Translations under genes and position numbers: made by a program
Part shown: positions 5,104 to 40,743 of the stretch, piece after piece
Numbering within the stretch: the stretch's first letter is position 1
Layout: each line of letters begins with the position of its first letter
DNA from: an uncultured Clostridia bacterium
Lineage (GTDB): Bacteria; Acidobacteriota; Aminicenantia; UBA2199
Assembly: GCA_964573895.1 (NCBI GenBank)
Contig: CAZNLS010000003.1
Location: 6,976 to 55,947, forward strand
DNA length: 48,972 nt
Reading direction: 5' to 3'
Notes under the pieces: generated by a model
What the model saw: only the letters and a program-made list of their open reading frames with translations
What the model was told of the DNA's origin: nothing
Databases searched by the model: none

Positions 5104-5129
5104 ATGGGAGAAAATGGGACAAAATGGGA
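5104..5129 (+). promoter_or_regulatory. putative MraZ operator: three direct repeats (A)ATGGGA with 10-bp periodicity
   Basis: ATGGGA occurs at 5104-5109, 5114-5119 and 5124-5129, each preceded by AAA. This resembles the TGGGN x3 array with 10-bp spacing bound by E. coli MraZ. Confidence 0.5.
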
Positions 5130-5605
5130 TAATTAAGCGTTTTAGGGGGAGTTTTACCCTGAAAATCGATGACAGGAACAGGATAAAAATACCCTCAAAA
5201 TATATGGGTATTTTAGAAAATCAGTTTGGAAGGGATGTATATCTGACCTCAGTCAATGGAGATCATATACTCTTCTATCCGCTTTCGATCTGGGAAAAGA
5301 TCGAACAGAATATCGAAAGATATAAATTCAGAAGCAGAAAAATAGAGGATTTCATAAGATTAACCTCTTATTGGGGAACCGAAACCGAAATAGATCCCAG
5401 GGGAAGAATTTTAATTCCTCCGAAGCTTAAAGAAAAAGCAGGAATTCTGGAAAATGTGCTGATCATTGGACAAATTGATTATATAGCTATCTGGAACTGT
5501 GAAACATATGAAGATAAATATGCATCCCGCTCATTTTCCGACCGGGAACTGGATGAAATTTCCGGGATATTAAATGGAGACTTATCATTTTCCGGTAATG
5601 AATAG
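5114..5605 (+). CDS. mraZ: transcriptional regulator MraZ
   Basis: 163-aa ORF with two SpoVT/AbrB-type repeats, each carrying a DxxxR motif (KIDDRNRIKIP and EIDPRGRILIP). It is the first gene of the dcw cluster. The start lies inside the repeat array, so it is uncertain. Confidence 0.85.
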   Translation: MGQNGIIKRFRGSFTLKIDDRNRIKIPSKYMGILENQFGRDVYLTSVNGDHILFYPLSIWEKIEQNIERYKFRSRKIEDFIRLTSYWGTETEIDPRGRILIPPKLKEKAGILENVLIIGQIDYIAIWNCETYEDKYASRSFSDRELDEISGILNGDLSFSGNE

Positions 5606-6458
5606 AGAAGTTATCTCTGTTCTAAGCCGCAGAACCGGGGGTGTTTTTATTGATTGTACAGTGGGACTCGGAGGGCATGCAGGATTAATTTTGGAAAAGA
5701 TCCCGGATTCCATAGTAATAGGGATAGATATGGATAAAGAAAGTTTGAAGATTGCCGGAGAAAATCTGAAGAGATTTAAAGGACGTGTAACTTTGATCAA
5801 TTTGCCTTATGAGGATATATTTGACTCAGGAAAGATTGAGTGGGATAAAATTTCAGGAGTTCTAATTGACCCGGGTTTGTCCATGTTTCAGCTAAAAAAT
5901 GGATCCAGGGGATTTTCTCATATATCGGATTCAAAACTTGATATGAGAAAAGACCGCTCTTCAGAACCTTCCGCTCATGAAGTTATAAATAAATTCAAAG
6001 AGGCTGATCTGATGACTATATTTTCGGATTTTGGAGATATTTCATCCCCGGATAAACTTGCAAAGAGAATTATCGAAAAAAGGTTGTTCCATCCAATTGA
6101 TACTACAGGGGAATTAAAAAATATAGTCGAAGAAGTATACGGATGGAGACCGGTAAGAGGCAGGTCACATCCCGCAGCCAGGGTATTTCAGGCACTTAGA
6201 ATATTTGTGAACCGTGAGTTGGAAAGAGTTGAGGAATTTATAACTAAAATTCCGGATTACCTTGGTAAGGGTGCACTGTTCATATTTTTAACTTATCACT
6301 CAATTGAGGACAGGATTGTAAAAAGAACAATGAAATCAGAGGCATCAAAGGGAAGACTTGATTTGATAAAACCATTTCCCTTTAAACCTTCGGATGAAGA
6401 GATTTCAATGAACTTTGCTTCAAGATCGGCAAAAATGAGGGCAGCATCTATCCAATGA
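5574..6458 (+). CDS. rsmH: 16S rRNA (cytosine1402-N4)-methyltransferase
   Basis: 294-aa ORF with the N-terminal HFPVM..EV motif, the SAM-binding motif DCTVGLGGH, and DPGLSMFQL. Sits in the conserved position after mraZ. Confidence 0.93.
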   Translation: METYHFPVMNREVISVLSRRTGGVFIDCTVGLGGHAGLILEKIPDSIVIGIDMDKESLKIAGENLKRFKGRVTLINLPYEDIFDSGKIEWDKISGVLIDPGLSMFQLKNGSRGFSHISDSKLDMRKDRSSEPSAHEVINKFKEADLMTIFSDFGDISSPDKLAKRIIEKRLFHPIDTTGELKNIVEEVYGWRPVRGRSHPAARVFQALRIFVNRELERVEEFITKIPDYLGKGALFIFLTYHSIEDRIVKRTMKSEASKGRLDLIKPFPFKPSDEEISMNFASRSAKMRAASIQ

Positions 6459-6736
6459 AGAAAAAAAAATACTTCGGAAGAATTATTATTTTTTTTTCAA
6501 TAATTATCTTTTTTCTTCTTTTCACATATTCCAGCCTGAACCTGAAAAATATTGACTATGGTTATGAACAGCAAAAGATGATTCTTGAACAGGAGAGACT
6601 TCAGGAAGAAATAGATATACTCGAGGCAAAAAAAGCAAAATTAACCGAACTTGGAAGAATAGAGAAAAGAGTGAAAAGCAGACTTGGATACGTATACCCT
6701 TCGGGAAAGCAGATCATACGTATTTACGGAAACTAA
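6455..6736 (+). CDS. ftsL: cell division protein FtsL-like (single TM plus coiled coil)
   Basis: 93-aa ORF with an N-terminal TM segment (IIIFFSIIIFFLLF) and a heptad-like EQERLQEEIDILEAKKAKL. Sits between rsmH and ftsI and overlaps rsmH by 4 nt. Confidence 0.6.
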   Translation: MKKKKYFGRIIIFFSIIIFFLLFTYSSLNLKNIDYGYEQQKMILEQERLQEEIDILEAKKAKLTELGRIEKRVKSRLGYVYPSGKQIIRIYGN

Positions 6737-6741
6737 TAAAA

Positions 6742-8442
6742 ATGAAGATAAACCGGTCTGAGAGAAAAAGAGTTTCAATTGTTTTTTCGATCTTCATGAT
6801 TTGGATTATTGCAATTGTTTTTATGTTAATAAAAATTCAGGTTCTGGGATTCAATAAATATCTCGGTAAGATCAGGAGTCAAAGCAACCGAACTCTGACC
6901 CTTCATCCGAAAAGAGGAACGATTTTTGATTACAATAATGAAGTGCTTGCTATCTCAATCCAGTCAAAATCTCTGTTTATTTCAAACAGGAGCAGAAAAA
7001 GTTCTTTGAGTCTGTTTAAAAAAATCAGGAGAGTGATCAGGATCAGTTCTTCTTCAGCAAAAAAAATTCTTATGAGAATAAAAAAAGGGAAAAATTTTAT
7101 CTGGATAAAGAGAAAATTAAGTGAGAAAGAATATAATGCAGTGAAAAGTCTGAACCAGTCAGGTTACACATCAAAATATTCATTTGTCGATGAATACAAA
7201 AGGATATATCCTAATTCACAACTTGCAGGTCATATCCTTGGCGGAGTTGGAGTTGATGAGCAGGGTCTCGCCGGAATTGAATACTCAATGGAATCCGTAA
7301 TCAGGGGGAAAGGTGGAAAAATCAGTGCCAGCATTGATGCCCGGAGTAAAATATTTAAATTTGAGAATATAAGTGAAAGGGTGACAGGAAAAGATCTTAA
7401 ATTAACAATAGATTCTGCTGTTCAGTTCTTTGTTCAGAGTGAATTAAAAAAAACAGTAAAAAAATATAATGCGGTTTCAGGTTCTGTCATTGTAATGAAC
7501 AGTTCAACGGGATCCATAATAGCAATGGCGAGTTATCCCTTCTATAACCCCGGGAGGATTAGATATACCAGCCCCAAAATTGTTAAAAATAATTCTCTCT
7601 CTTTTCTCTATTATCCAGGCTCTACTTTCAAGATTATACTTGCATCTTCCGCTCTCTTGCATAATGTCTGCAATTTTTCTGAAACTATAAACTGTTATAA
7701 CGGAGTTTATTCAATAAACAATCTTAAAATAACCGATGAACATCCATTTGAACAACTGAGTTTTAGAGATGTGATAGTCCTTTCCAGTAATATCGGTGCA
7801 GCAAGAGTCGGAATGAGAATAGGCGATAACAGGTTTTATAATGATTTAAAAAAATTCGGGATCGGGTCTGCACCCAATATCCGTCTACCGGCGGTAGAAA
7901 AGGGTATTCTCAATCCTCTGGAGAGATGGAACAGGTACTCATCGGCCTATTTATCACACGGTTATGAAGTTTATGTTACACCTATTCAAATGACCAGGGC
8001 ATTCAATGTAATTGCTTCCGGCGGTTTTCTTGTGGAACCGGTAATATTAAAGTCGGTAAAGGGATACCTTTTTAAAAAATTAACCAGGAAAAGAATAATC
8101 TCCCGGGAAATTGCCGCTAAATTAAGAGATGTGATGGTCGATGTAGTTAAAAGAGGGACCGGGAAAAAGGCCTTTTTGAGTACTGTTGAAATAGCCGGAA
8201 AAACAGGTACCGCAAAAAAATTCAGGGGAAACAGATTCATTAATAAATATGTCTCTTCTTTCGGAGGTTTTTTCCCGGCCGGGAATCCTGTTATTACAAT
8301 GTTTATCGTTATAAATGAACCGAAGGGAAGCTTTTACGGAGGAGATGTTGCTGCACCGCTTTTTAAATCAATTGCAAAGCGAATAATCATATTGAAAAAT
8401 ATAGACGTTAAGCTAGATAGCGGGACGGGGATGAGGATATAA
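6742..8442 (+). CDS. ftsI: penicillin-binding protein 3-type peptidoglycan D,D-transpeptidase
   Basis: 566-aa ORF with an N-terminal TM segment and the three class B PBP motifs: STFK (GSTFKI), SSN (LSSNIG) and KTGT (GKTGTA). Confidence 0.9.
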   Translation: MKINRSERKRVSIVFSIFMIWIIAIVFMLIKIQVLGFNKYLGKIRSQSNRTLTLHPKRGTIFDYNNEVLAISIQSKSLFISNRSRKSSLSLFKKIRRVIRISSSSAKKILMRIKKGKNFIWIKRKLSEKEYNAVKSLNQSGYTSKYSFVDEYKRIYPNSQLAGHILGGVGVDEQGLAGIEYSMESVIRGKGGKISASIDARSKIFKFENISERVTGKDLKLTIDSAVQFFVQSELKKTVKKYNAVSGSVIVMNSSTGSIIAMASYPFYNPGRIRYTSPKIVKNNSLSFLYYPGSTFKIILASSALLHNVCNFSETINCYNGVYSINNLKITDEHPFEQLSFRDVIVLSSNIGAARVGMRIGDNRFYNDLKKFGIGSAPNIRLPAVEKGILNPLERWNRYSSAYLSHGYEVYVTPIQMTRAFNVIASGGFLVEPVILKSVKGYLFKKLTRKRIISREIAAKLRDVMVDVVKRGTGKKAFLSTVEIAGKTGTAKKFRGNRFINKYVSSFGGFFPAGNPVITMFIVINEPKGSFYGGDVAAPLFKSIAKRIIILKNIDVKLDSGTGMRI

Positions 8443-9902
8443 TGAGAATATCGGAAATTTTAAATAAAGTTGAGTTTATCTCATTTTCAGGTAACTCAAA
8501 TAAAAATATTACAGATATCCACTATGATTCTCGTCAGATTGTTCCGGGATGCTGTTTTACAGCAATTGAAGGATCAAGATTTAACGGGAACAATTTTATA
8601 GGAGATGCGGTTTCGCGCGGAGCCGAAATGGTAGTTTCATGCAATGAAAGTGACAGGAATTATAAAAATCCGGCTTGGCTAAGGGTCAAGAATGTAAGAA
8701 AAACACTTGGTGTTTTATCTGAAATAATCTTTAACTATCCGCTTAGAGAGAAAAATGTGATTGGTGTCACGGGGACAAATGGGAAAACCAGTGTGGTTTC
8801 AATGATATACGGGATAAAAAAAAGAATTGAAAAACCGGTAAAGATAGGAACTCTCGGGATGGAAATAAATAATATTCATAAAAAATCTTTTCTTACTACT
8901 CCCGAGATAAGTGATCTATTCAGATTTTTATCTATTGATTGCAATAATAATTTTGATTCGGTAATTATGGAAGTTTCATCTGCTGCATTAGCAATGAACC
9001 GGGTAGAAAATATTGAATTTTCTCAGGCGGTATTCACAAATTTTTCAGGAGATCATCTCGATTTCCACGGTAATATGAACTCCTATTTTGAAGCCAAGCT
9101 ATCTCTGTTTGACAGATTGTCCGGAAACGGGACTGCTGTTTTAAATATTGAAGATCCAATGTCAGATAAGATCATAGACAGAATTAACAGTAAGTTTATA
9201 ACTTATGGATTCAATAAAAATGCAGATGTATATCCAATTGATTATAAGTTAAGTATGAATGGAATTGAAGCAAAAATAGAAACACCTGCCGGAATGATCA
9301 GGATAGACTGTCCTCTGCTTGGCAGAATTAATCTTCTAAATATTTTAGCGGCGGTTGCGTCATCAACTGTTTCAGAAGTAAGGATAGTTGATATTGAAGA
9401 TGGTATTTCCGGATTTCAGCAGATTACAGGCAGATTAAATGTAGTTTATAAGAATGATTTCACTGTACTTGTTGATTATGCTCATACCGATGATGCATTA
9501 AAAAATCTTCTGATATCTCTCAGGGAACTAACTGAAAAGCGGATTATTCTTATCTTTGGAGCAGGCGGATCACGGGATAAAACTAAAAGGCCAAGAATGG
9601 GAAGGGCAGCTTGTGAGTATTCTGATTTTGTTATAGTTACAAGTGATAATCCGAGAAATGAAGATCCGATGGAAATTATTTCTGATATCAAAAAAGGATT
9701 TTTAGATGGTTTTTCGGAATATGTTGTTGAAGCCAACAGAAAAAAAGCTATATCAGCCGCTATTTCGGAAGCGGATCCGGGTGATATAGTAGTGATCGCA
9801 GGAAAAGGACATGAAGACTACCAGATATTTAAAGAGCGAACAATTCACTTTGACGATAGAGAAGTTGTAACTTCAATTATTAAGGAGGGTTTCAGTGCCT
9901 GA
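8442..9902 (+). CDS. murE: UDP-N-acetylmuramoyl-L-alanyl-D-glutamate--2,6-diaminopimelate ligase
   Basis: 486-aa ORF with the Mur ligase P-loop GVTGTNGKTS and the DNPR motif (SDNPRNEDP) that marks meso-DAP-adding MurE. Has a TAATG overlap with ftsI. Confidence 0.93.
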   Translation: MRISEILNKVEFISFSGNSNKNITDIHYDSRQIVPGCCFTAIEGSRFNGNNFIGDAVSRGAEMVVSCNESDRNYKNPAWLRVKNVRKTLGVLSEIIFNYPLREKNVIGVTGTNGKTSVVSMIYGIKKRIEKPVKIGTLGMEINNIHKKSFLTTPEISDLFRFLSIDCNNNFDSVIMEVSSAALAMNRVENIEFSQAVFTNFSGDHLDFHGNMNSYFEAKLSLFDRLSGNGTAVLNIEDPMSDKIIDRINSKFITYGFNKNADVYPIDYKLSMNGIEAKIETPAGMIRIDCPLLGRINLLNILAAVASSTVSEVRIVDIEDGISGFQQITGRLNVVYKNDFTVLVDYAHTDDALKNLLISLRELTEKRIILIFGAGGSRDKTKRPRMGRAACEYSDFVIVTSDNPRNEDPMEIISDIKKGFLDGFSEYVVEANRKKAISAAISEADPGDIVVIAGKGHEDYQIFKERTIHFDDREVVTSIIKEGFSA

Positions 9903-11280
9903 TCTTTCATTCAGGGAAATTGCCGATGCAATTGGTGGTGATATATACAATTTTTCAAAAGATTTTATTATATCTGATTTCCAGTTTGACTCACGAAATA
10001 TAGTTGAGAAGCCCACACTATTCTTTGCACTTAATTCCGATTCCGGTGACGGTCACAAATATGTCCCTGATCTTAAAAGAAGTGATGTCGGGGCGGTTGT
10101 AAACAATGATTTTGATAAAAATTTGACAAATATTCCTCTAATATCGGTCGATAACACGTTGAGTGCTGCTCACAAATTAGCATCATTTATAAGGAGTAAA
10201 TTCAGTAAGATCAGGTATATAGGAGTAACCGGCAGTGCCGGAAAAACAACCACGAAAGAATTCATTGCAGAATTATTGTCTGAGAAATTCAAAGTTTTCA
10301 GATCATTTGAAAACTGGAATAACTGGATAGGGATGCCGTTTTCCTTAATGGGAATTGACGGAGATGAAGATTTTGCGGTTTTCGAGCTGGCTATGAGTTA
10401 CCCCGGTATAGGAGAAATCGATCTACTTGCAGAAATACTGAGACCGGATATTGCAATAATATTAAATGTATTTCCCGTTCATATGGAGTTTTTAAAAACT
10501 CTCGAAAATGTAGCAAAGGGAAAGATTGAAATTCTGAACTACCTTGATTCTGATTCAATTGCATTTGTTTCCGGAGATTCTGATCATATTCTTGATGCGG
10601 CACAAGGCAAAAAAGGGAGAATAATCTTTTTTGGAAGAGATTATGAGAAAAACAATATTGTATTGGACAAAATAGAGAGAGGAAAAACAGGTTCAGTAAT
10701 AACTGCTGATTTTTTTGGAATTGAATCCGATTTTAATACTTCTCTGATTAACAGTGTCCATCTTGAAAATTTGTTCCCGGCGATTTTAACTGCCCAGAAC
10801 TGCGGAATGAAAAACTGGGAAATACAAAAAGCAATAAAAAATATTAAACCGATATCCAACAGGGGAGCGGTTAAAAAACTGGGAAATTTTACAGTTATTG
10901 ATGAAACATATAATTCAAATCCCATTGCATTGGAAAAAACACTAAAGTGGGTTGACTCTGAATATTCAGAAAAAAAAATTGCAGTTATCGGAGATATGCT
11001 TGAACTGGGCGAATTAGAAGATTCCTTTCATAGTAAAGCAGGAAAATATTTCGCAAGCCTTGACTATTCCCGCCTGGTAACGGTTGGGATCAGAGCAAAA
11101 AAGATAGCTGAGGGTGCAAGCCAGGAGGGGTTTCCCGAAGCTCATATAAACTCTTTTGAAAATGCAGTTGAAGCGGGAAAATTTTTAAAGAATTTCAATA
11201 GTGAAAAATATGTAATACTCTTTAAAGCCTCCCGGGGAATAGCACTTGAGAATGCGATGAAGGAACTGGACAATGAATAA
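9895..11280 (+). CDS. murF: UDP-N-acetylmuramoyl-tripeptide--D-alanyl-D-alanine ligase
   Basis: 461-aa ORF with the GVTGSAGKTTTKE P-loop and the IDETYNSNP motif. Sits in the conserved position after murE. Confidence 0.9.
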   Translation: MPDLSFREIADAIGGDIYNFSKDFIISDFQFDSRNIVEKPTLFFALNSDSGDGHKYVPDLKRSDVGAVVNNDFDKNLTNIPLISVDNTLSAAHKLASFIRSKFSKIRYIGVTGSAGKTTTKEFIAELLSEKFKVFRSFENWNNWIGMPFSLMGIDGDEDFAVFELAMSYPGIGEIDLLAEILRPDIAIILNVFPVHMEFLKTLENVAKGKIEILNYLDSDSIAFVSGDSDHILDAAQGKKGRIIFFGRDYEKNNIVLDKIERGKTGSVITADFFGIESDFNTSLINSVHLENLFPAILTAQNCGMKNWEIQKAIKNIKPISNRGAVKKLGNFTVIDETYNSNPIALEKTLKWVDSEYSEKKIAVIGDMLELGELEDSFHSKAGKYFASLDYSRLVTVGIRAKKIAEGASQEGFPEAHINSFENAVEAGKFLKNFNSEKYVILFKASRGIALENAMKELDNE

Positions 11281-12652
11281 AGGAATTGGAATTGTCGGAT
11301 ATGGAAAAACAGGGAAAGGTGTTCTCAATTTTCTTGCAGAAAAAGGATTCGGAGAGCCTGTAGTAATCTATGATGATAACTTAAAAAAAAAGATTGATAC
11401 TCAAAATTTTAATTCTTTGGCCGACATTACGGTGCTCAAAGGTCCCAATGAATTTGATAAACTTAAAACCCTCGGGACGATTGTTCTCAGTCCGGGTATA
11501 AACGGCCGTGAATCGAGGTTTGACACTCTGCGTAATTCAAATGTTGAAATAGTATCTGAAGTTGAATTTGCTTCAAGATATATATCAAATCCAATCATTG
11601 CCGTTACCGGAAGTAACGGGAAGTCAACAACGGTAAGCCTGATCCATCATTTCCTTCAACATGGAGGGAAAAAATCTGTTTTATGTGGAAATATAGGCAC
11701 TCCGTTTATATCTGTGATCAGCCTCATTGATGCTGATGCTATTGTTGTCATTGAAGTATCAAGTTTTCAGCTTGAAGAGATAAAAAAATTTAAACCCTTT
11801 GTTTCTGTTTTTCTTAATATTACGCCAGATCACCTGGACAGGTATCCGGAATTTGAAAATTATAAAACAGCAAAGATGAATTTACTGAAAAATCAGACAG
11901 AAGATGATTATATTATATTTAATTTTAATGATAGTGAACTTCAAAATTTTTATTTGCGGAATAGTGAAAAAATTCTGTCGAATTTGCTTTGGTTCCGGGG
12001 AAGAGAATTTAAACCCGAATTAAATGCATACTTAAAAGAGGGCAAAATTGCTATTGAAATTAATGGGACAAATGAATTGATTAATCTGGCATCTAATCCC
12101 CTTATAGGAGATTACAATGTTGAAAATATCATGGCTGCGGCTCTTGCAGCTGCAATCACCGGTGCGGATATAAAAGCTTTTTCCAAAAGTTTATCGAGTT
12201 TTTACGGTCTGCCTCACAGGGTTGAATTTTGTGGTTCGATAAACAATGTAAATTTTGTGAATGATTCAAAAGCTACAAATATTGATGCTGCATTGAAGGC
12301 AGTGTCAGGAATCGAGGGGGACATTGTAATTATCGTCGGGGGAAAAGATAAGGGTGGTGATTTTACGGCATTTTCAGATTATATTGGCAAAAATGTCAAA
12401 AAAGTTCTCTTAATTGGAGAGGCTTCAAAGATAATTGAAGATCAACTTTGTGCAAAGAAGAATTTTCTAAAAAACATTAAATCAATGTATGAGGGAGTTT
12501 TAACCGGATATTCGATCCTGAAAGAGTCGGGAGGGACTCTGTTATTATCACCGGGATGTGCCAGTTATGATATGTACAATAATTTTGAGGAACGCGGCAA
12601 TGATTTTAAATCGGCAGTAAATAGATTTATAGGTGAAATGCAGAATGGTTAA
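11273..12652 (+). CDS. murD: UDP-N-acetylmuramoylalanine--D-glutamate ligase
   Basis: 459-aa ORF with the N-terminal Rossmann motif GIVGYGKTG, the AVTGSNGKSTT P-loop and the MurD hallmark NDSKATN. Confidence 0.93.
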   Translation: MNKGIGIVGYGKTGKGVLNFLAEKGFGEPVVIYDDNLKKKIDTQNFNSLADITVLKGPNEFDKLKTLGTIVLSPGINGRESRFDTLRNSNVEIVSEVEFASRYISNPIIAVTGSNGKSTTVSLIHHFLQHGGKKSVLCGNIGTPFISVISLIDADAIVVIEVSSFQLEEIKKFKPFVSVFLNITPDHLDRYPEFENYKTAKMNLLKNQTEDDYIIFNFNDSELQNFYLRNSEKILSNLLWFRGREFKPELNAYLKEGKIAIEINGTNELINLASNPLIGDYNVENIMAAALAAAITGADIKAFSKSLSSFYGLPHRVEFCGSINNVNFVNDSKATNIDAALKAVSGIEGDIVIIVGGKDKGGDFTAFSDYIGKNVKKVLLIGEASKIIEDQLCAKKNFLKNIKSMYEGVLTGYSILKESGGTLLLSPGCASYDMYNNFEERGNDFKSAVNRFIGEMQNG

Positions 12653-13751
12653 AAGTGTAGGAATTGACAAGGTCCTGATGATAACATTAACGATGCTTAT
12701 ACTATTCGGCCTTATCATGGTTTACAGTTCAACAATGATAATTGCAAAAGAGAGGCATGGGGACAGCTTCTATTTTTTGAAAAGGCAGCTTCTCTGGCTA
12801 TTTTTAGGATTCATAATCTTTTCAATCATTGTTTCCCTGAAGAAGCCGCTATTTTTAAAAAGGAATTTTGTATTCTTTTTTTTACTTTTATGCTTGGCGG
12901 GATTGATTATGGTATTTTTTACCGGAAAAATAAATAACAGTTTCAGATGGATAAAACTCGCTGGATTTTCGATCCAGCCCTCAGAATTTGCAAAAATATC
13001 CGTAGTATTGTACCTTGCATTCAGCCTGAGCAGAAAAAAATCAGATGTAAATGACCTGAAAAAGCTTGCAGTAATACTTGCTCCTGTTATAGTCGCTGAA
13101 ATTCTTATTCTTCGTGAGCCGGATTTTGGAACATTTGCACTGATACTTCTTGTTACAGTTGTTATGCTGTACGTTTCAGGTCTACGGATATCTTATATTT
13201 TTACCAGTCTTTTCTTCCTCCTGCCATCATTTATTCTTCTCATTAAAATGAATCCTGAAAAGATGAACAGGATCCTTGCTTTTATGAATCCTGAAGCATA
13301 CTCTTCCACATACGGATTCCAGACTCTTCAGTCCATTTATGGTATTGGTTCAGGGGGGATATTCGGGCAGGGACTTGGGAATTCGGTACAAAAACTATAC
13401 TTTCTCCCTTATGCATACTCAGATTTTATTTTTTCAGTGATTGGAGAGGAAGTAGGTCTGATCGGATCCATTCTAATTTTATCACTGTTTTTTATTTTTC
13501 TTGCCCGTGGATTGAATATAGCTAAAATGTCCGGAAACAGCTATACATATATGCTTGTAACGGGACTTACTTTTATGATTGTTTTTCAGGCAATGATAAA
13601 TATATCGGTTACAATAGGACTATTTCCGACAAAAGGTATTCCGCTGCCTTTTATTTCCAGCGGGGGAAGTTCGCTGATATCAAGTATGATTATGACAGGA
13701 ATCATTCTGAATATATCAAGACATAGGAAAATGGTGCTCTTAAATGATTAG
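12633..13751 (+). CDS. ftsW: peptidoglycan glycosyltransferase FtsW (SEDS family)
   Basis: 372-aa polytopic membrane ORF with SEDS motifs (QPSEFAK, GLGNS, LPYAYSDFIF, GIPLPFISSGGSS). Confidence 0.9.
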   Translation: MKCRMVKSVGIDKVLMITLTMLILFGLIMVYSSTMIIAKERHGDSFYFLKRQLLWLFLGFIIFSIIVSLKKPLFLKRNFVFFFLLLCLAGLIMVFFTGKINNSFRWIKLAGFSIQPSEFAKISVVLYLAFSLSRKKSDVNDLKKLAVILAPVIVAEILILREPDFGTFALILLVTVVMLYVSGLRISYIFTSLFFLLPSFILLIKMNPEKMNRILAFMNPEAYSSTYGFQTLQSIYGIGSGGIFGQGLGNSVQKLYFLPYAYSDFIFSVIGEEVGLIGSILILSLFFIFLARGLNIAKMSGNSYTYMLVTGLTFMIVFQAMINISVTIGLFPTKGIPLPFISSGGSSLISSMIMTGIILNISRHRKMVLLND

Positions 13752-15129
13752 ATTCAGCAAGGTTAAAAGAATACATTTTGTCGGGATTGGCGGAGCAGGA
13801 ATGTCCGGGATAGCGGAAGTCTTAAAAAATATGGGATTTTCAGTTACCGGGTCCGATATAGCGGAGAGCAGTGTTATTAACAATTTAAGAGACAAAGGGA
13901 TAAAGATCACTATCGGGCATAAACCCCAAAACATAGGTCTTGCTGAAACTCTAGTTTTTTCAAGTGCTATAACCCGCAATAACCCTGAAATAAAAGAGGC
14001 ACTGAAAAATAAAATCCCGGTTATCCCCAGAGCAGAAATGCTGGCAGAGTTGATGAGAGTTAAATATTCAATTTCTATTGCGGGAACTCATGGTAAAACG
14101 ACTACTACATCAATGCTTGCAACAATTCTAAGCATGGCCGGGAAAGATCCGACCTATGTTGTAGGCGGAAAACTAATGATGCAGGAGAGTGGAGCAAAAC
14201 TTGGAAAATCCAATTACCTTGTAGCTGAAGCAGATGAATCTGATGGAAGTTTTCTTAGTCTTTTCCCTACGATTGCAATAATAACAAATATTGAAGATGA
14301 TCATCTTGACTATTATAAAAATATAAACAATCTAAAGAAGGCATTTAAAAATTTTGGCAATAAGGTTCCTTTTTACGGTCTAGTTGTGATGAATTCAGAT
14401 TGTAATGTATCGGGCAAAATTATAAAAAAGCTTAATAAAAGAGTGAGGTTGTTCGGATTGTCGGAAAAGGCTGATATCAGGGCAAAGAATATAAAAACCT
14501 CCCTGAGAAATTCTGAGTACGATCTGATGATTGACGGGAAACAGGCGGGGAAAGTAAAAATGAAAATTCCCGGGCTTCATAATATCATGAATTCGCTGGC
14601 AGCTGTGGCTGCATCCATCGAAGCGGGGATTGAACCGGATATTATTATAAACGGACTAAAAAATTTCTCTTTACCCGAACGAAGGCTTCAGACCCTGCTT
14701 GACAGGGGAGGAGTATTTGTTGCAGATGATTACGCTCATCATCCGACTGAGATAAAATCAACTCTTAGTGTGTTTGAAGGAAGCGAATACAAAAGGGTTA
14801 TTGCCGTTTTCCAGCCACATCGGTTTACCAGGCTGCAGATATTTATGGGAGAGTTTGGAAAATCATTTGGTGCTGCTGATCTTGTTATAATTGCAAAGCT
14901 TTACGGAGCAAATCAGAAGGAAATAAAAAATGTGAACAGCGGAACTCTTGTTAAAATGATGAAAAAGGATAGTAATAAGAACGTAGTCTATATTGAAGAT
15001 TTTGAGGAAATCAAATCTTTTTTACTCAGAGAGGTTAAATCCGGAGATGCCATAGTATTTCTTTCGGCAGGGAATCTGACGAAGACCGCACATGAGTTTG
15101 CAGATCAACTTGGAGAAAAGATAAAATGA
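13744..15129 (+). CDS. murC: UDP-N-acetylmuramate--L-alanine ligase
   Basis: 461-aa ORF with IHFVGIGGAGMSGIAEVL, GTHGKTTTTSM and DDYAHHP motifs. Confidence 0.93.
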   Translation: MIRFSKVKRIHFVGIGGAGMSGIAEVLKNMGFSVTGSDIAESSVINNLRDKGIKITIGHKPQNIGLAETLVFSSAITRNNPEIKEALKNKIPVIPRAEMLAELMRVKYSISIAGTHGKTTTTSMLATILSMAGKDPTYVVGGKLMMQESGAKLGKSNYLVAEADESDGSFLSLFPTIAIITNIEDDHLDYYKNINNLKKAFKNFGNKVPFYGLVVMNSDCNVSGKIIKKLNKRVRLFGLSEKADIRAKNIKTSLRNSEYDLMIDGKQAGKVKMKIPGLHNIMNSLAAVAASIEAGIEPDIIINGLKNFSLPERRLQTLLDRGGVFVADDYAHHPTEIKSTLSVFEGSEYKRVIAVFQPHRFTRLQIFMGEFGKSFGAADLVIIAKLYGANQKEIKNVNSGTLVKMMKKDSNKNVVYIEDFEEIKSFLLREVKSGDAIVFLSAGNLTKTAHEFADQLGEKIK

Positions 15130-15917
15130 GGCAGATTGGTTTGAATCCGGGAAATGAGATTGAATTTTTAAGAAAAAATAATAACAGAAATCTTCATAAG
15201 AGCAAGAGAATAAGGTCGATAAAAGTCAGATCGTTTCACCTGGTATTAATAATACTCATTTTTATTTTTACCGGATATGGTGCATTTAAAGCGGGCAAGT
15301 TTATCACCGGCTGGGATTTTTTATCTGTAAAAAAATATAAACTGATAAATTCACCTGTTTTTATGAAGGTCAGAATAGAGAAAATTCTCAAAAAACACAG
15401 AGGTAATATCTTATCTATAGACCTTGGAAAGTTAAGAAGAGATCTGTTGACAATTAAAGAAGTCAGGGAGGTAAATATTTCAAGAAGGCTGCCTTCTACG
15501 TTATCAGTAACTTTTTTTCTCAGAAAGCCGGTTTTTCAATTTAAGAAAAACGGAACATACAGAATTGCAGACAGAGAAGGTGTTGTCATTTCCAGAATGA
15601 AAAAACCCGTTCCCGGACTTATTAACATAAAACTCTCGGAAAAGGGAACAATGGAAAAGATCAATTCCAGTCTTGCGGAAATCAGCCATATTAAGAATAT
15701 GATTGAATATGTGACTTATAAAAATCCCTATGGAATTGTCTTGAAATTAAAGAACTTTGAAGAACTTTTTTATACAGGTGATAAAGGATTTATCCCGGGA
15801 ATAAAAAGATATCTGAAATTAAGGAAAATGTTTATTGATAAAGAAAACAGGTTGACAGTCGTTGATCTCAGGTTCAGGGGAAGGCTCTATCTTGGATATG
15901 AGAGGGAGGTTATCTAG
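15126..15917 (+). CDS. ftsQ: cell division protein FtsQ (POTRA domain)
   Basis: 263-aa bitopic ORF with a TM segment (FHLVLIILIFIFTGYGAF). Sits between murC and ftsA and overlaps murC by 4 nt. Confidence 0.7.
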   Translation: MRQIGLNPGNEIEFLRKNNNRNLHKSKRIRSIKVRSFHLVLIILIFIFTGYGAFKAGKFITGWDFLSVKKYKLINSPVFMKVRIEKILKKHRGNILSIDLGKLRRDLLTIKEVREVNISRRLPSTLSVTFFLRKPVFQFKKNGTYRIADREGVVISRMKKPVPGLINIKLSEKGTMEKINSSLAEISHIKNMIEYVTYKNPYGIVLKLKNFEELFYTGDKGFIPGIKRYLKLRKMFIDKENRLTVVDLRFRGRLYLGYEREVI

Positions 15918-17141
15918 ATGAAAAATAATTTTTTAGTTGGCATTGATGTAGGGACGAATAAAGTCAGTACTATAATCGGGCAGGTAAAAACCGAAGACGG
16001 TAAAGATGAAATAGAGGTAATAGGATATGGTGTTTCGGATTCCTCGGGGATGAAAAGAGGAGTTATCGTTGACATGAATAATACTGTCGAAGATATAAAA
16101 AAATCTGTTAAGGAAGCCGAACTTACAGCGGGAGTGGAAGTTGAATCCGCATATATCAATATTTCCGGAAGTCATATCCAGTCTATTAGTGCCAAGGGAA
16201 GCATAAATATAACAGGCAGCAGGAATCGTGAAATCACAAAGGATGATGTAGACAGAGCGATCACACATGGCAGCAGCATTATGCTTCCGAATAATAAAGA
16301 TATAATACATGTTCTTCCTCAGGAATTTATCATTGATTCGCAGGAAGATATAAAAAATCCTGTTGGAATGACAGGAACCAGCCTTGAAGTGTACATTCTT
16401 ATTGTAACGGCTGCAAGAGCTGCAACCAGGAACCTCCTCATCTGTTTGAAGAAGGCAAAAATTGATGTTTTGAAAATGGTGCTGTCACATATTGCTACTT
16501 CCGAGGCAGTACTGACACCCGATGAGAAGGAACTGGGTGTATTGATGATTGACATAGGCGGTGGTACAACTGATTTTGCAATATATGAGAAGGGAGCTTT
16601 GAAGTTTTCTTCAACAATCGGAGTCGGTGGATTTAATTTTACAAATGACCTTGCAATCGGAACCAGGACGCCGATTGACAAAGCGGAAATGATCAAGAGA
16701 AAATTCGGAAGCGGACTTGACCCTAATCTCAGAAATCAGAATATCGAAATCCCGAGTGTCGGGGGGAAAAAGATCAGACTGATCAATCCATCGTTATTAA
16801 CGGAAATTTTAAAACCAAGGGCGGAAGAAATTTTTGAAATGGTTAAATCCAGGATCGAGCAGGAAGGTCTTGAGAATAAAATAAATGCCGGGGTTGTTCT
16901 TACCGGAGGGACGTCACAACTGGATGGACTTCTTGAGATAGCGGATGAAATATTTGCTGCTCCGATCAGGATAGGTAAACCTTTTGGTCTCGGAGGCTTG
17001 ATTGATAAAGTTGATACTCCTGATTTTTCGACATCTCTGGGATTAATAAAATACGGTCTCCTTGATATGAGGAACCGAGGCGTAATAACCCGGTCATCAA
17101 CCGGTATTGTTCAAAAAATTAAAGATTTTTTGGGGTTTTAG
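15918..17141 (+). CDS. ftsA: cell division protein FtsA
   Basis: 407-aa actin-fold ORF with VGIDVGTNKV, DIGGGTTD and VLTGGTSQL motifs. Confidence 0.93.
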   Translation: MKNNFLVGIDVGTNKVSTIIGQVKTEDGKDEIEVIGYGVSDSSGMKRGVIVDMNNTVEDIKKSVKEAELTAGVEVESAYINISGSHIQSISAKGSINITGSRNREITKDDVDRAITHGSSIMLPNNKDIIHVLPQEFIIDSQEDIKNPVGMTGTSLEVYILIVTAARAATRNLLICLKKAKIDVLKMVLSHIATSEAVLTPDEKELGVLMIDIGGGTTDFAIYEKGALKFSSTIGVGGFNFTNDLAIGTRTPIDKAEMIKRKFGSGLDPNLRNQNIEIPSVGGKKIRLINPSLLTEILKPRAEEIFEMVKSRIEQEGLENKINAGVVLTGGTSQLDGLLEIADEIFAAPIRIGKPFGLGGLIDKVDTPDFSTSLGLIKYGLLDMRNRGVITRSSTGIVQKIKDFLGF

Positions 17142-17150
17142 GAGGTATAA

Positions 17151-18428
17151 ATGAATGATGAAGTAAAGATCACCATGAAAAAAGAGAGAAAGAAAGGAGC
17201 TGTCCTGAAAGTTATCGGGATTGGCGGAGGAGGCGGAAATGCGATCAACAGAATGATAGAGGAAAAACTTTCCGGAGTGGATTTTATTGCTGTTAATACC
17301 GATCTTCAGGATCTCTCCACGATAATACCTCCCGCGTTTCCTCTTCAAATAGGTGAAAAGCTTACAAAAGGACTTGGAAGCGGATCAAATGCGGAAATTG
17401 GCATGCAGGCAGCTCTCGAAAGCACTGATATCATTACCGACACTCTTGAGGGAGCAGACATGGTATTTCTCACAGCTGGAATGGGAGGCGGAACCGGAAC
17501 CGGTGCATCCCAGGTCATTGCAAATCATGCCTCTTCCATGGGCATCCTCACAGTTGCGATAGTAACTAAGCCTTTCGAATTTGAGGGGAGCCACAGACTG
17601 GAAGTAGCTGAAGATGGAGTTAAAAATCTCATTGGAAGTGTCGACGCCATAATTGTTATTCCCAATGAAAAACTGTTTGAAATTGATGAAGAAGATATTC
17701 CTCTCAGGGATTCTTACAGGAAAGTTGATGAAATACTGCTGAAGGCTGTGAGGGGAATTTCAGATATTATAAATACTTCAGGTTTTCAGAATGTGGATTT
17801 TGCAGATGTGAAGTCAACCATGGCTGAGAAAGGAATGACAATGATGGGCACAGGCGAATCAAAGGGCGAAAACAGGGCAGAGGAAGCTGTAAATAAAGCT
17901 CTTAATTCACCGCTTCTTGACAATATATCAATTGACGGGGCAACCGGAGTGCTTTTTAATATTACTACTTCACCAGCTTATCCACTGAGAAGGGATGAGC
18001 TGAAGATTATTGCAGAGACAATACGCGGGCAGGTTTCTCCCAATGTAAAGAGTAAATTCGGTGTGGTTGAGGATGGGAATATGGGCGATATATTGAGGGT
18101 TACTGTGATTGCTACCGGATTTGGCAATGAGAAGAGTTCAAGAAAAGTACATCAAAAAACTCTTCTCGAAGAAGAAATAAAAGCCCCGATAAGAAGAATG
18201 CCGACTCCGGCAAGTGTAAATGGGGATGATGTTTCGAGCCGGAATTTCATGCGAAATGCCGGTAATGAAAATCTCTTAAGAGAGAGGGATGTAACTCCGC
18301 TTAACCTTGTCAAAAACGGGAGGGAATACCTTTCGGAAGGAAATCATCCTAATATTACTCATAGTGATGATATCCCGGAAGAAGATATTCTGGATGTACC
18401 AACATTCCAACGTCCCAAAAGAAGATGA
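17151..18428 (+). CDS. ftsZ: cell division GTPase FtsZ
   Basis: 425-aa ORF with VIGIGGGGGNA, the tubulin signature GGGTGTG, and a C-terminal anchor peptide DILDVPTFQR. Confidence 0.96.
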   Translation: MNDEVKITMKKERKKGAVLKVIGIGGGGGNAINRMIEEKLSGVDFIAVNTDLQDLSTIIPPAFPLQIGEKLTKGLGSGSNAEIGMQAALESTDIITDTLEGADMVFLTAGMGGGTGTGASQVIANHASSMGILTVAIVTKPFEFEGSHRLEVAEDGVKNLIGSVDAIIVIPNEKLFEIDEEDIPLRDSYRKVDEILLKAVRGISDIINTSGFQNVDFADVKSTMAEKGMTMMGTGESKGENRAEEAVNKALNSPLLDNISIDGATGVLFNITTSPAYPLRRDELKIIAETIRGQVSPNVKSKFGVVEDGNMGDILRVTVIATGFGNEKSSRKVHQKTLLEEEIKAPIRRMPTPASVNGDDVSSRNFMRNAGNENLLRERDVTPLNLVKNGREYLSEGNHPNITHSDDIPEEDILDVPTFQRPKRR

Positions 18429-37850: not shown

Positions 37851-38912
37851 CTATTTTATTGCCGACTTTATTATTCCGCCGCCAAGGACTGTATCTCCGT
37901 CATAGAGGACAACGGATTGGCCCGGGGTTACAGAAGATTGCTCTTCATCAAAAATGATATCCATACCCGTTTTTGTTATTTCGATTAAACAATCTTTTTC
38001 TTCTGCAGAAGATCTTATTTTTGCTTTAGCCTTTTCGGGAAGCATATCGACGAGTATGTTCACATCTTCAGACCGAAGGCCCTTTGAGAATAATTCTTCT
38101 CTCCTGCCAAGAATTATATTATTTGTCTTTGCGCTTATTGCTATTACATATAGAGGATGTGGTCCGGAAATTCCAAGTCCTTTTCTTTGACCTATTGTAT
38201 AGTTCCATATCCCGTTGTGTTCTCCCAGGACTTCACCGTCTAAATTTAAAAAACTGCCTTTTTTTGGTTTTGATTTTATGAGGTCGCTGTAATTTCCCGA
38301 ATAAAAATCCTGGCTCTCAGGTTTATTGTACACAGGAAGGCCGGAATCTTTTGCTATTTTCCTTACTTCATCTTTTGTATAATTTCCAAGTGGGAACAGG
38401 GATCTTGATAACTGCTCCTGAGTAAGCCTGTACAAGAAGTAGGATTGGTCTTTTTTTGGGTCTTTTCCCTTTTTTAAAATAAAATTTCCGGTTCCTGCAT
38501 CCTCGATTGCATTTACATAATGACCCGTTGCAAACTTTTCAAATTTCATTCCCGATTTGAAAAGAAGTGCGGGCAGTGCTCCGAATTTTATATTTTTATT
38601 GCAGAGTATACACGGATTTGGTGTTCTCCCTTCAGTATATTCACGATTGAAATTATCAAGAACAATGCTTTCATACTCTTTTGAACAATCAATTTGCTTA
38701 AAAGGAATCTCAAGGAAATCACAAACTTTTTTCGCCTCTTCAATATCATCTTTCTCATCAGGACCGTAACAGGCATTTCCTTTTGTTGTTTTTGCATCTC
38801 CACCCTTCCATAATGTCATTATAGTTCCAAAAATTTCGTGTCCTTCTTTTTTAAGTAAATAAGCGGCAACTGCGGAGTCTACTCCGCCACTTAATCCAAC
38901 CGCAATTTTCAT
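37851..38912 (-). CDS. mnmA: tRNA 2-thiouridine(34) synthase
   Basis: 353-aa ORF with the PP-loop motif GLSGGVDSAVAA, the catalytic NPCILCN motif and ATGHY. Confidence 0.95.
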   Translation of the reverse strand: MKIAVGLSGGVDSAVAAYLLKKEGHEIFGTIMTLWKGGDAKTTKGNACYGPDEKDDIEEAKKVCDFLEIPFKQIDCSKEYESIVLDNFNREYTEGRTPNPCILCNKNIKFGALPALLFKSGMKFEKFATGHYVNAIEDAGTGNFILKKGKDPKKDQSYFLYRLTQEQLSRSLFPLGNYTKDEVRKIAKDSGLPVYNKPESQDFYSGNYSDLIKSKPKKGSFLNLDGEVLGEHNGIWNYTIGQRKGLGISGPHPLYVIAISAKTNNIILGRREELFSKGLRSEDVNILVDMLPEKAKAKIRSSAEEKDCLIEITKTGMDIIFDEEQSSVTPGQSVVLYDGDTVLGGGIIKSAIK

Positions 38913-39020: not shown

Positions 39021-39941
39021 TTAATGATCTAATTCTTTTATAATTTCAATTTTTTTTAGAAAATCCGAATTCAGTTCGAACTTTAGAGAATAAGCTGGAA
39101 TATTTTTTACAAAAAAATGAATATTTTTGAAGCACCTAGTATTCAATTTTATTATTTCCCTTTTATCAAGTCTTGAAATGAGTAATTCATTTGATTGCCT
39201 GGCGAGTTCATTAAGGAGGCATAGTGCTTCTCCCTGCCCTTGTCTCTCTATTTTTGCACCCAAACCGTGCTCAAAAAATAGTACTGCCTTGAGTGGGGCT
39301 CTCTTTATTGCATTCCATCTTCTTTTTTTAATTGAGTTTTTTTTCCCAAATATACTGCTCCAGGTAGGCATGGGAACGGCATCGAAACTAAAACCCTCTC
39401 CCGGAATAACAATCGAAATATCATCTGAGTGAGATATCCAGGGCGGTTTGAAAGATTTGCTCATTGTGGTTTTCCCTGACCCGGATGCCCCTGCCAGAAG
39501 AATGCCATCGCCTTTGTATTCGGATAGTGCAGCATGGATCAGGAATCCGCCAGATTTAAGAAGATATCCTGCGACAACAGAAGTCAGGATGGACAATTGA
39601 CGCCATAGCCATTCGGTTCTGGTCATGAATTCCTGCTTACGATGATTTTTGTTTTGTTCTCCAGGGTCTCTTAACGGAAATCTTGAGAGATTTTCAGGCT
39701 CAAGGTAGAGAATAGAATCTGAGCTGGCAGAATTTTGAATGTAGCCTATTTCGGATTTTCCATCTGCTGATTCTATCCTGATTCTATGTTTTATTCCAGC
39801 CTGGATTTCCGAATCACCGATTGTTAAAAATGCATCAGAGAATTTATTAAGTACCTCTAATGAATTATTATCAACTGCTTCAATAAGGATCTGATTCCCG
39901 GTTGGTAATTTAAAATAATATTTCTTTAATTTACCAGTCAT
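39021..39941 (-). CDS. HprK-related P-loop kinase-like protein (RiPP-cassette type)
   Basis: 306-aa ORF. The Walker A motif LLAGASGSGKTT (39468-39491) is followed 12 aa later by ISHSDD, the same arrangement as GxSGxGKS...ADD in the HPr kinase C-terminal domain. Has an ATGA overlap with the PqqD-like gene. Confidence 0.7.
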   Translation of the reverse strand: MTGKLKKYYFKLPTGNQILIEAVDNNSLEVLNKFSDAFLTIGDSEIQAGIKHRIRIESADGKSEIGYIQNSASSDSILYLEPENLSRFPLRDPGEQNKNHRKQEFMTRTEWLWRQLSILTSVVAGYLLKSGGFLIHAALSEYKGDGILLAGASGSGKTTMSKSFKPPWISHSDDISIVIPGEGFSFDAVPMPTWSSIFGKKNSIKKRRWNAIKRAPLKAVLFFEHGLGAKIERQGQGEALCLLNELARQSNELLISRLDKREIIKLNTRCFKNIHFFVKNIPAYSLKFELNSDFLKKIEIIKELDH

Positions 39942-40246
39942 AAAATATCTTCAAACTTCTTTGATTCATCCCTGCTTTTTACTATGAATAATCTTCTGTA
40001 AAGTGTATCGGCAAATTTGGACACATCACTAAGAGCCGTAGAATTGTTTATAGAGAACTTAACGGCGATCTCATCTGCTATATCTCTAATAGATTTTTTC
40101 CCGTCGAGTAGATTCCATATAGAAACTGCAGTTTCATTAAGGCCGATTGTTTCAGCAGTAAGTGGTTGAAAAAGTACGCTATAATCTGAAAGATCGTTAA
40201 TTAGAATAACGCTTTTTATTTTTTCAGGTTTTAACTCGCTTTGCAT
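39938..40246 (-). CDS. PqqD-family peptide chaperone (RiPP recognition element)
   Basis: 102-aa ORF. The pattern LNETAVSIWNLLDGKKSIRDIADEIAVKF...ALSDVSKFADTL matches the PqqD winged-helix signature (N.t...iw.l.dG..t..ei...l......DV..f...L). Confidence 0.75.
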   Translation of the reverse strand: MQSELKPEKIKSVILINDLSDYSVLFQPLTAETIGLNETAVSIWNLLDGKKSIRDIADEIAVKFSINNSTALSDVSKFADTLYRRLFIVKSRDESKKFEDIL

Positions 40247-40279
40247 TTGAAGTATTTAATTAAGATTCACAGACAAAAC

Positions 40280-40567
40280 TCAGGGAGTAACAAACATTCC
40301 CGATCTGCAGCCATCCGGATCACTCGTTCCGCCTCCGCCTGCTTCACAATACCAGGGACTTCCCCCTGTTACACAGTCACCCTGCCCGGGTGTTGACCCG
40401 TTGCTACAATAAGAACCGGTCCAGCCATTGCCTCCCGATGCGCACTGTTCCGGATTCGGGCCTGCAGCACTACCCTGAAAACACCCCATTGTATGATCCT
40501 GACCCGTTACAGAACGGGATTTAGACCCAAGGTCAACACACACCGGGGGTTCATATTTTTTCTTCAC
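40280..40567 (-). CDS. Cys/Gly-rich candidate RiPP precursor peptide
   Basis: 95-aa ORF with a GTG start and a GGAG 7 nt upstream. The leader MKKKYEPPVCVDLG carries a YxxP motif. The core has six CxxG units (CFQG, CASG, CSNG, CVTG, CEAG, CRSG), 20 Gly and 7 Cys. By hand count, 40321-40500 contains 104 G+C in 180 nt. Confidence 0.6.
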   Translation of the reverse strand: MKKKYEPPVCVDLGSKSRSVTGQDHTMGCFQGSAAGPNPEQCASGGNGWTGSYCSNGSTPGQGDCVTGGSPWYCEAGGGGTSDPDGCRSGMFVTP

Positions 40568-40743
40568 TTGCTTTCTCCAACTGAAAATCTCAGATACCAG
40601 TTTAAAATGAGTACAATAATGGATAAATTATATAAAACTGATGCTAAAAAGTCAATACTCTCGGGTTGATTATTGACAAAAATTGTCAATTTATCAGCTG
40701 TTTTGTCAACAGGATTCATTGTGTCATTCTGTTTTATCATCAT
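40564..40743 (-). CDS. possible 59-aa small membrane protein (not in the ORF track, which stops at 60 aa)
   Basis: Hand translation gives MMIKQNDTMNPVDKTADKLTIFVNNQPESIDFLASVLYNLSIIVLILNWYLRFSVGESK. GAGGA lies 5 nt before the ATG at 40743, and the stop overlaps the precursor GTG (GTGA). Against it, the same DNA holds a consensus promoter and a palindrome. Confidence 0.3.
   Translation of the reverse strand: MMIKQNDTMNPVDKTADKLTIFVNNQPESIDFLASVLYNLSIIVLILNWYLRFSVGESK
40627..40655 (-). promoter_or_regulatory. near-consensus sigma70 promoter upstream of the precursor gene
   Basis: On the minus strand: TTGACT (40650-40655), a 17-nt spacer, then TATAAT (40627-40632). This predicts a 5' UTR of about 50 nt before the GTG at 40567. 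Confidence 0.55.
40672..40690. promoter_or_regulatory. 19-bp palindrome ATTGACAA-AAA-TTGTCAAT (candidate regulator site)
   Basis: Perfect 8-bp arms with a 3-nt centre. The centre lies about 60 nt upstream of the predicted transcription start of the 40627-40655 promoter. Another TTGACA copy sits at 40704-40709. Confidence 0.4.

Follow-up and report, generated by a model that had tools for sequence, protein, structure and literature searches.

The widespread SynChlorMet (SCM) cassette is represented in NCBIfam by a set of protein families comprising ScmA (TIGR04252), ScmC (TIGR04249/PF27840), ScmD (TIGR04248), and the radical S-adenosylmethionine (SAM)/SPASM proteins ScmE and ScmF. As far as the searchable literature shows, this cassette is defined bioinformatically only. 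An experimental parallel comes from lasso peptide biosynthesis, in which HprK homologues phosphorylate the linear precursor (PMC8498205) and a PqqD-type recognition element for peptides made on ribosomes and modified after translation (RiPPs) boosts the phosphorylation of a precursor with a YxxPxL leader (PMC10368454, PMC8498205); in one such system, the PqqD-type protein BsfB1 greatly speeds phosphorylation of such a precursor by the HprK-type kinase BsfK (PMC10368454). Here we describe an operon in a 48,972-bp stretch of contig CAZNLS010000003.1 from an uncultured Clostridia bacterium (assembly GCA_964573895.1; the whole stretch is called the window below), which encodes a Cys/Gly-rich peptide, a PqqD-family RiPP recognition element (RRE), and a ScmC-like P-loop enzyme. 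The locus is a conserved variant, lacking radical-SAM genes, of the known SCM cassette; it does not represent a new class, nor is it a fragment left by decay.

The operon unit consists of a promoter and three genes—peptide, PqqD, and P-loop enzyme—whose coordinates are given in Table 1. The GTGA overlap, 33-nt gap, and ATGA overlap described in an earlier reading of the DNA (the sequence-only reading) are all present. The three open reading frames (ORFs) are real genes: each has homologues across many genomes and evolves under purifying selection. With respect to the peptide gene, its GTG start codon aligns with ATG in relatives and is preceded by GGAG 8 nt upstream.

The 306-aa protein had been suspected of being ScmC, and this is indeed its best family: TIGR04249 matches it at 111.4 bits (E = 4.9e-32; curated cut-off 125), with the match covering only the C-terminal 173 residues. 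PF27840 "ScmC" is precomputed on the 90%-identical protein P0001 and on all 50 family hits but one, and the relative P0018, from an Aminicenantes metagenome-assembled genome (MAG), has already been named "ScmC" by NCBI. The closest labelled relatives belong to Candidatus Aminicenantes MAGs, with two others labelled "uncultured Clostridia." An exhaustive phmmer search returned 1,066 ScmC representatives (50% identity clusters) at E ≤ 0.001, but only 7 at E ≤ 1e-30, showing the window's clade to be a small and divergent branch of a large family that is found mostly in uncultured anaerobes. The other families proposed earlier scored far under their cut-offs, and membership of HPr-rel-A (TIGR04352, 18.7 bits vs 200; TIGR04353, 16.6 bits vs 35), of HprK-related kinase B (TIGR04355, 18.6 bits vs 200), and of GeoRSP (TIGR04302 for its PqqD protein, 22.8 bits vs 100) was rejected on these scores.

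The ScmC-like protein contains an N-terminal alpha/beta domain and a C-terminal nucleotide-binding domain of the HprK/phosphoenolpyruvate (PEP) carboxykinase type. A profile of 25 ScmC sequences searched against the PDB retrieved HPr kinase/phosphatases first (1ko7, E = 3.9e-6), in an alignment spanning the catalytic His, the P-loop, and the Asp-Asp pair. An AlphaFold2 (AF2) model of the protein had a mean predicted local distance difference test (pLDDT) of 82.7 and a predicted template modeling score (pTM) of 0.83, and a Foldseek search with it placed PEP carboxykinases first, with E = 2e-7 and a template modeling score of about 0.5. In structural classification, the PEP carboxykinase fold superfamily includes the HprK catalytic domain. 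The GASGSGKTT and ISHSDD motifs noted earlier are both present, and the full set comprises H136, G151-x2-G154-x-G156-K157-T158, D173-D174, and PxPTWS (residues 190–195). Across 75 ScmC representatives, H136, G156, K157, and D173 are invariant, and T158/T159, D174 (72 Asp, 3 Glu), and the family-specific PxPTWS are nearly so. The catalytic motif of BsfK, the importance of which has been shown by mutagenesis (PMC10368454), is found as H136-G151-G154-G156-K157-T158-D173-D174 vs H148-G163-G166-G168-K169-S170-D186-D187 in BsfK, with Ser replaced by Thr at T158 and the spacing between the Lys and the Asp pair differing by one residue. The ATP-binding and phosphotransfer site of the HprK type is intact. 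Many canonical ScmC proteins carry an N-terminal extension of ~230 aa.

The 102-aa protein, as proposed earlier, belongs to the PqqD family (PF05402, 51.2 bits vs a cut-off of 23.4, E = 1.6e-13). Among the NCBIfam models, it scores highest with ScmD (TIGR04248), at 48.3 bits and under the cut-off of 100. A PqqD profile built in this work matches the characterized lasso B1 protein BsfB1 at 51 bits. The window's PqqD protein would bind the leader of the peptide. In several lineages, PqqD and ScmC are fused into a single protein (P0010, P0012, P0017, and P0021; loci L011, L027, L042, and L050). By the usual logic of RiPP systems, fusion to an RRE marks the enzyme that needs the leader.

The 95-aa peptide has the architecture of a RiPP precursor, as the sequence-only reading had supposed. 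Its leader, MKKKYEPPVCVDLGSKSRSVTGQ, follows the lasso-like pattern YxxPx[L/C]xxxG, and its Gly/Ser/Thr-rich core of ~70 aa contains six invariant CxxG motifs at C29, C42, C54, C65, C74, and C87. Homologues with 80% and 70% identity are found in other genomes in the same peptide-PqqD-ScmC arrangement. Window-type peptides have an invariant skeleton of Tyr5 and Pro8 (YxxPx[V/I/L/M/C]xx[L]), a G-Q junction, and the six CxxG motifs. Comparison of 14 peptides showed the Y5/P8/G22 leader and the CxxG skeleton to be invariant and the segments between the Cys residues to be variable, as is general for RiPP precursors. One further leader residue, Cys10 (YxxPxC), is invariant in the window, L005, L006, L008, L009, L020, and L100; in every family member outside the clade without radical-SAM genes, this position is V, I, L, or M.

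In the peptides of canonical SCM loci, C(T/S)AG motifs recur after a KYE(S/A)PxxVPLGExAKGSG leader, and hhalign aligned these peptides with the window-type peptides over 64 columns with a probability of 96% (E = 3.7e-9). One canonical peptide matches ScmA (TIGR04252; cut-off 35 bits) at 29.2 bits (E = 8e-7) and others at 14–17 bits, and the window peptide itself has no match to this model at E ≤ 1. Its homology to ScmA is therefore indirect, by way of the canonical peptides, and on this sequence comparison it is a divergent ScmA-like member that the curated model misses. The cassette had been thought to have no assigned substrate peptide, a view that does not hold, since NCBIfam has TIGR04252 "SCM_precur_ScmA." Overall, it is highly probable that the locus is an SCM-derived peptide/PqqD/ScmC module.

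Two other identities for the peptide were considered and rejected. A folded mini-protein is at odds with the AF2 prediction for the peptide alone, which is disordered (pLDDT 33), as would be expected for a precursor, although the alignment of only 3 sequences is shallow and makes this weak evidence. A lasso peptide was rejected given that the window encodes neither a cyclase nor a B2 protease and that the core does not fit; the window's core peptide lacks the lasso pattern, in which a ring-forming Asp/Glu stands at position 7–9.

The absence of any other maturase from the window, also claimed earlier, was confirmed by three scans. Hidden Markov models (HMMs) built from verified ScmE/ScmF proteins had no match among the ORFs of 30 aa or longer, the CxxxCxxC motif is absent from all ORFs of 150 aa or longer, and Pfam scans of all large ORFs in the window revealed no Radical_SAM, SPASM, lasso cyclase, leader protease, or ABC exporter. 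Thus, neither the leader peptidase and exporter of a typical RiPP cluster nor the two radical-SAM proteins of the SCM cassette are encoded there.

HMMs made from verified examples were used to class every ORF in the window and in 99 loci (100 sequences in total), and removal of redundancy left 81 ScmC loci. Two radical-SAM genes are present in 33/81 loci, and at least one, on a contig that is cut, in another 13/81. A complete cassette with a single such gene, in the order PqqD-radical SAM(SPASM)-ScmC, was found in 3/81 loci, with L024, counted among the cut contigs, a likely fourth. No radical-SAM gene is present in 7/81 loci with at least 3 kb of upstream and 1.5 kb of downstream sequence, nor within 2–3 kb upstream in 2/81; the remaining 23/81 lie on short contigs and were left unclassed. 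In 33 of the 41 informative loci (those in which a PqqD gene is preceded by at least 500 nt), a peptide match accompanies ScmC. Homologous peptides adjoin ScmC in loci with no, one, and two radical-SAM genes, and peptide and ScmC are the only constant pair across the cassette types, while the radical-SAM genes come and go.

A neighbor-joining tree of the catalytic domain united the window with L005, L006, L008, L009, L020, and L022 in one clade. No radical-SAM gene was found in those clade members with enough flanking DNA, and in all members the PqqD gene adjoins the peptide gene. The sister locus L039 has the order peptide-PqqD-radical SAM(SPASM)-ScmC and a core peptide pattern almost the same as that of the window. 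In L039 and L024–L026, the radical-SAM genes lie exactly between PqqD and ScmC, as would be expected if the triad were the non-functional leftover of an SCM cassette from which these genes were deleted, and the sequence-only reading had foreseen that such relatives would make the locus a decayed fragment. Adjacent radical-SAM genes do occur in relatives with homologous peptide, PqqD, and ScmC (L039, L012, and the 33 loci with two such genes), and the locus therefore descends from a known class, but decay does not follow, the clade being monophyletic and under purifying selection. All three reading frames are intact in at least 7 divergent genomes, and the catalytic motifs and promoter are conserved. 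Within the clade, where synonymous sites are saturated, dN/dS was well below 1 for every gene—0.05–0.15 for the peptide, 0.16–0.52 for PqqD, and 0.19–0.31 for ScmC—indicating that the triad is kept by selection, with the tightest constraint on the peptide, whose conservation exceeds that of both enzymes. The remnant explanation is effectively refuted by these ratios and retains hardly any probability.

The radical-SAM-free clade occupies three different neighborhoods. The window and L100, its closest relative, both have mnmA downstream and differ upstream; L005 and L006 have upstream genes in common with the window; and in L001, L008, and L009, the triad lies between an M48 peptidase gene and a PF03618 kinase gene. 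This distribution bears on a second alternative, in which the cluster is split, with ScmE/ScmF-type radical-SAM/SPASM enzymes encoded elsewhere in the genome cross-linking the six Cys residues and ScmC having an accessory role as in canonical cassettes. In agreement with such an arrangement, the six CxxG Cys residues are invariant in the clade, in a pattern near-identical to that of the radical-SAM-bearing sister L039, and the peptide co-occurs with two radical-SAM genes in 33 non-redundant loci. However, the window operon is flanked by 9 kb of DNA on one side and 39 kb on the other that contain no radical-SAM gene; none lies within 10 kb to either side of the operon in five further clade members or on the 5.3-kb contig of L100, and in none of its three neighborhoods is the triad accompanied by one. 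Radical-SAM genes have also been lost independently in other branches (L011, L034, and L053), and PqqD is translationally coupled to ScmC here and fused to it elsewhere. A split cluster is regarded as rather unlikely, though it retains appreciable probability.

The explanation that we favor, with a slight leaning towards it when taken as a whole, is that the locus is an SCM derivative without radical-SAM enzymes in which ScmC carries out a PqqD-guided, ATP-dependent phosphorylation of the peptide. PqqD would dock the leader and present the linear peptide to ScmC, which would use ATP for the phosphorylation of at least one hydroxyl side chain in the core; the most recurrent candidate acceptors are Ser/Thr residues located within CxxG motifs. 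Two radical-SAM enzymes, of which one has a SPASM domain, would also act on the peptide in the ancestral cassette, presumably at Cys, and the lineage of the window would have lost them both. Because neither a protease nor an exporter is encoded in the window, the product may remain intracellular and keep its leader. The components of this explanation differ in strength. Direct, leader-guided action of ScmC on the peptide is probable, since PqqD-ScmC fusions occur in several lineages and since no pair other than peptide and ScmC is constant across the cassettes. That the chemistry is phosphorylation and that no distant radical-SAM enzyme takes part is, as a combined proposition, somewhat less likely than not.

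Several observations weigh against phosphorylation by an independent triad. The residues that are invariant in the peptide family are only Cys, Gly, Tyr, and Pro, with neither Ser nor Thr among them, so that none can be singled out as the phospho-acceptor. That all six Cys residues are strictly kept where the enzymes expected to use them are lacking is more easily explained by radical-SAM enzymes acting in trans. The scores for ScmC, ScmD, and ScmA all fall under the NCBIfam curated cut-offs; the similarity of ScmC to BsfK is distant, at 20 bits and confined to the catalytic core; and the Hpr_kinase_C domain (PF07475), for which a search had been proposed, gave no match to the 306-aa protein at E ≤ 1. 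In addition, no paper in the open-access literature mentions the SCM cassette, and literature searches on Scm genes, on RREs with HPr kinases, and on RiPPs of Aminicenantes returned nothing beyond the lasso peptide papers. A C-terminal Ser/Thr, the acceptor in paeninodin, was considered as a general phospho-acceptor and rejected, as a C-terminal Thr is kept only within the radical-SAM-free clade.

The missing acceptor is also the starting point of a third alternative, in which ScmC is not a peptide kinase but uses ATP otherwise, as a chaperone or scaffold for the disordered precursor, a phosphorylase, or a kinase of another protein or a small molecule, and in which the peptide, instead of being a RiPP, is a small protein rich in Cys and active with metals or in redox reactions. 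The best fold matches of ScmC are PEP carboxykinases, which are small-molecule enzymes; the window has no protease or exporter; and a length of 95 aa with six regularly spaced Cys residues would suit metal binding. On the other hand, the RRE-ScmC fusions argue for leader-guided action on the peptide, all catalytic residues of HprK-type peptide/protein kinases are kept, and related cassettes include RRE-fused signal-peptidase-like proteases, ABC transporters, and nucleotidyltransferase and sulfotransferase-like genes, which are typical of RiPP tailoring. We consider this alternative improbable, and clearly more so than a split cluster.

With respect to the control region, the operon promoter scored 11/12 in a promoter scan, and both of its hexamers and their spacing are kept 5′ of the peptide gene in L005, L006, and L100. 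The inverted repeat further upstream is identical in L100 and near-identical in L006, and is possibly an operator, that is, a candidate binding site for a regulator. No structured RNA was detected in the leader region by Rfam. Four packed minus-strand ORFs had been described at this locus; their coordinates were reproduced, but the outermost, of 59 codons, was rejected as a fourth gene or second peptide. It holds the conserved promoter and shows no conservation as a protein: L005 and L006 have no equivalent ORF, though the promoter sits at the same position there, and the differences from the 90%-identical relative L100 are, by reading of the alignment, mostly non-synonymous and look neutral, in a region conserved no better than the non-coding DNA upstream. 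The promoter claimed for the downstream mnmA gene was found.

Table 1. Positions of the operon features, of other genes in the window, and of selected genes in related loci.
Feature	Sequence	Position	Strand	Remark
Inverted repeat, perfect, TTGACA-ATTTT-TGTCAA	window	40673..40689		17 nt upstream of the operon -35 box; read from the sequence
Promoter, sigma-70-type: TTGACT, 17-nt spacer, TATAAT	window	40627..40655	-	~60 nt upstream of the peptide start codon
ORF of 59 aa	window	40564-40743	-	GTGA overlap with the peptide ORF
Precursor peptide gene, 95 aa, GTG start	window	40280..40567	-	
Codon of leader Cys10	window	40538-40540		
PqqD-family RiPP recognition element, ScmD-like, 102 aa	window	39938..40246	-	
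ScmC-like P-loop enzyme, 306 aa	window	39021..39941	-	start overlaps PqqD stop (ATGA)
mnmA	window	37851-38912		downstream of the operon
mnmA promoter, TTGACC-17-TATAAT	window	38990-38962		
Protein of 343 aa with HNH homing-endonuclease-associated repeat (PF18780)	window	1406-2437		directly after purA
Ribonucleotide reductase large subunit	window	2863-4947		C-terminal TSCPD domain
dcw cluster	window	5114-18428		mraZ-rsmH-ftsI-murE-murF-murD-ftsW-murC-ftsQ-ftsA-ftsZ
Sulfotransferase-like protein	L034	2984-3334		
Sulfotransferase-like protein	L053	3222-4415		
Sulfotransferase-like protein	L032	1110-2291		
Sulfotransferase-like protein	L031	1343-2491		
PqqD domain fused to signal-peptidase-I-like domain	L031	2540-3496		TIGR02228, 53.9 bits
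S24-like peptidase	L018	10854-11462		after ScmC
Wzz/GNVR/ParA-type gene	L012	6777-8459		between the two radical-SAM genes
Tandem array of three paralogous precursor genes, then PqqD-ScmC fusion	L011	7852-9710		Chloroflexi MAG
Three PqqD genes and second divergent ScmC-like gene	L016	5011-11569		upstream of the canonical cassette

Related loci vary considerably in their gene content. L012 has the order peptide, PqqD, radical SAM/SPASM, Wzz/ParA-like gene, second radical SAM, and ScmC, with the interposed gene resembling a bacterial tyrosine kinase, and similar small ORFs accompany ScmC in L014 and L018. In L011, the neighbors of the tandem precursor genes and the PqqD-ScmC fusion are polyhydroxyalkanoate (PHA) synthase genes, and no radical-SAM gene lies within 10 kb. 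L034 and L053, which also lack radical-SAM genes, consist of peptide and ScmC followed by a sulfotransferase-like gene; this protein of ~390 aa, found after ScmC in such loci, starts with "...FLHIPKTAGLT" and has a weak match to Gal-3-O-sulfotransferase. The PqqD-signal-peptidase fusion of L031 and the S24-like peptidase of L018 are, judged from their domains, candidate leader peptidases of the SCM superfamily. Genes for ABC transporters and nucleotidyltransferases are present in related cassettes as well. In L016, the canonical cassette that follows the additional PqqD and ScmC-like genes contains a 522-aa ScmC.

Outside the operon, Pfam scans of the window identified purA, ribonucleotide reductase, the dcw cell-division cluster, oxoprolinase subunits, glmS, peptidases, a sulfatase, and an MMPL transporter. 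In the dcw cluster, mraY is missing from its usual place between murF and murD, as is murG from its own between ftsW and murC. An anti-phage defense system was rejected, PADLOC giving only 17-bit generic P-loop and winged helix-turn-helix noise.

The sequence-only reading was right in outline and overstated the novelty of the locus, which has three genes, an existing precursor model, and radical-SAM-bearing relatives. The gain is incremental, and the window's clade represents the smallest natural version of the SCM cassette—peptide, recognition protein, and ScmC—under selection. This minimal triad makes the function of ScmC directly testable, free of oxygen-sensitive radical-SAM chemistry, and provides an entry point to a large orphan enzyme family. 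The precursor family now extends well beyond the curated ScmA model, and radical-SAM enzymes are seen to be dispensable accessories in several branches, which changes the choice of the enzyme to be regarded as the core of the system. In the boldest version of the phosphorylation explanation, peptide and ScmC, with PqqD free or fused, would be the autonomous core of the whole SCM superfamily, the clade of the window a kinase-only, leader-guided pathway, and its product the 95-aa Cys-rich peptide in phosphorylated form, with neither cleavage nor export. Taken together these claims are doubtful; if true, no peptide kinase system that depends on an RRE and stands alone would have been known before outside lasso peptides, and the product, rather than an antibiotic, could be a redox- or metal-active factor within the cell.

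Among known systems, the SCM cassette is the closest. The two enzymes of the window score best with the ScmC and ScmD families, the peptide is homologous to canonical precursors in its leader and CxxG repeats, and canonical loci have the order peptide-PqqD-...-ScmC. Unlike these loci, the window is without both radical-SAM genes, the pair that defines the cassette; its proteins score under the cut-offs (111 vs 125 for ScmC; 48 vs 100 for ScmD; no match for ScmA), its PqqD gene is coupled directly to ScmC, and its peptide, besides being longer, has a "GQ" junction, six CxxG motifs, and one additional Cys in the leader.

The lasso kinase systems (BsfK/BsfB1, PadeK, and ThcoK; PMC10368454, PMC8498205) have the same H...GxxGxGK[ST]...DD motif as ScmC, and some related clusters of both systems contain sulfotransferase-like and nucleotidyltransferase genes. 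They differ from the window in having a lasso cyclase, B2 protease, and ABC exporter, and the core of the window peptide, ~70 aa with six Cys residues, lacks the ring-forming Asp/Glu pattern; ScmC, for its part, has family-specific motifs such as PxPTWS, and its similarity to BsfK amounts to 20 bits. HPr kinase/phosphatases (PDB 1ko7, 1knx, and 1jb1) are the best relatives of solved structure by sequence profile, with the catalytic His, P-loop, and Asp-Asp pair aligned, whereas the ScmC-like protein has no PF07475 match and a different N-terminal domain, and is encoded in a RiPP-like operon rather than in the context of carbon catabolite control. HPr-rel-A, HprK-related kinase B, and GeoRSP systems also pair a PqqD-like with an HprK-like P-loop protein, but the window proteins are not members of them. 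By descent, the locus is thus an SCM cassette; by analogy with the lasso kinases, it would work like a PqqD-assisted peptide kinase system of the HprK type.

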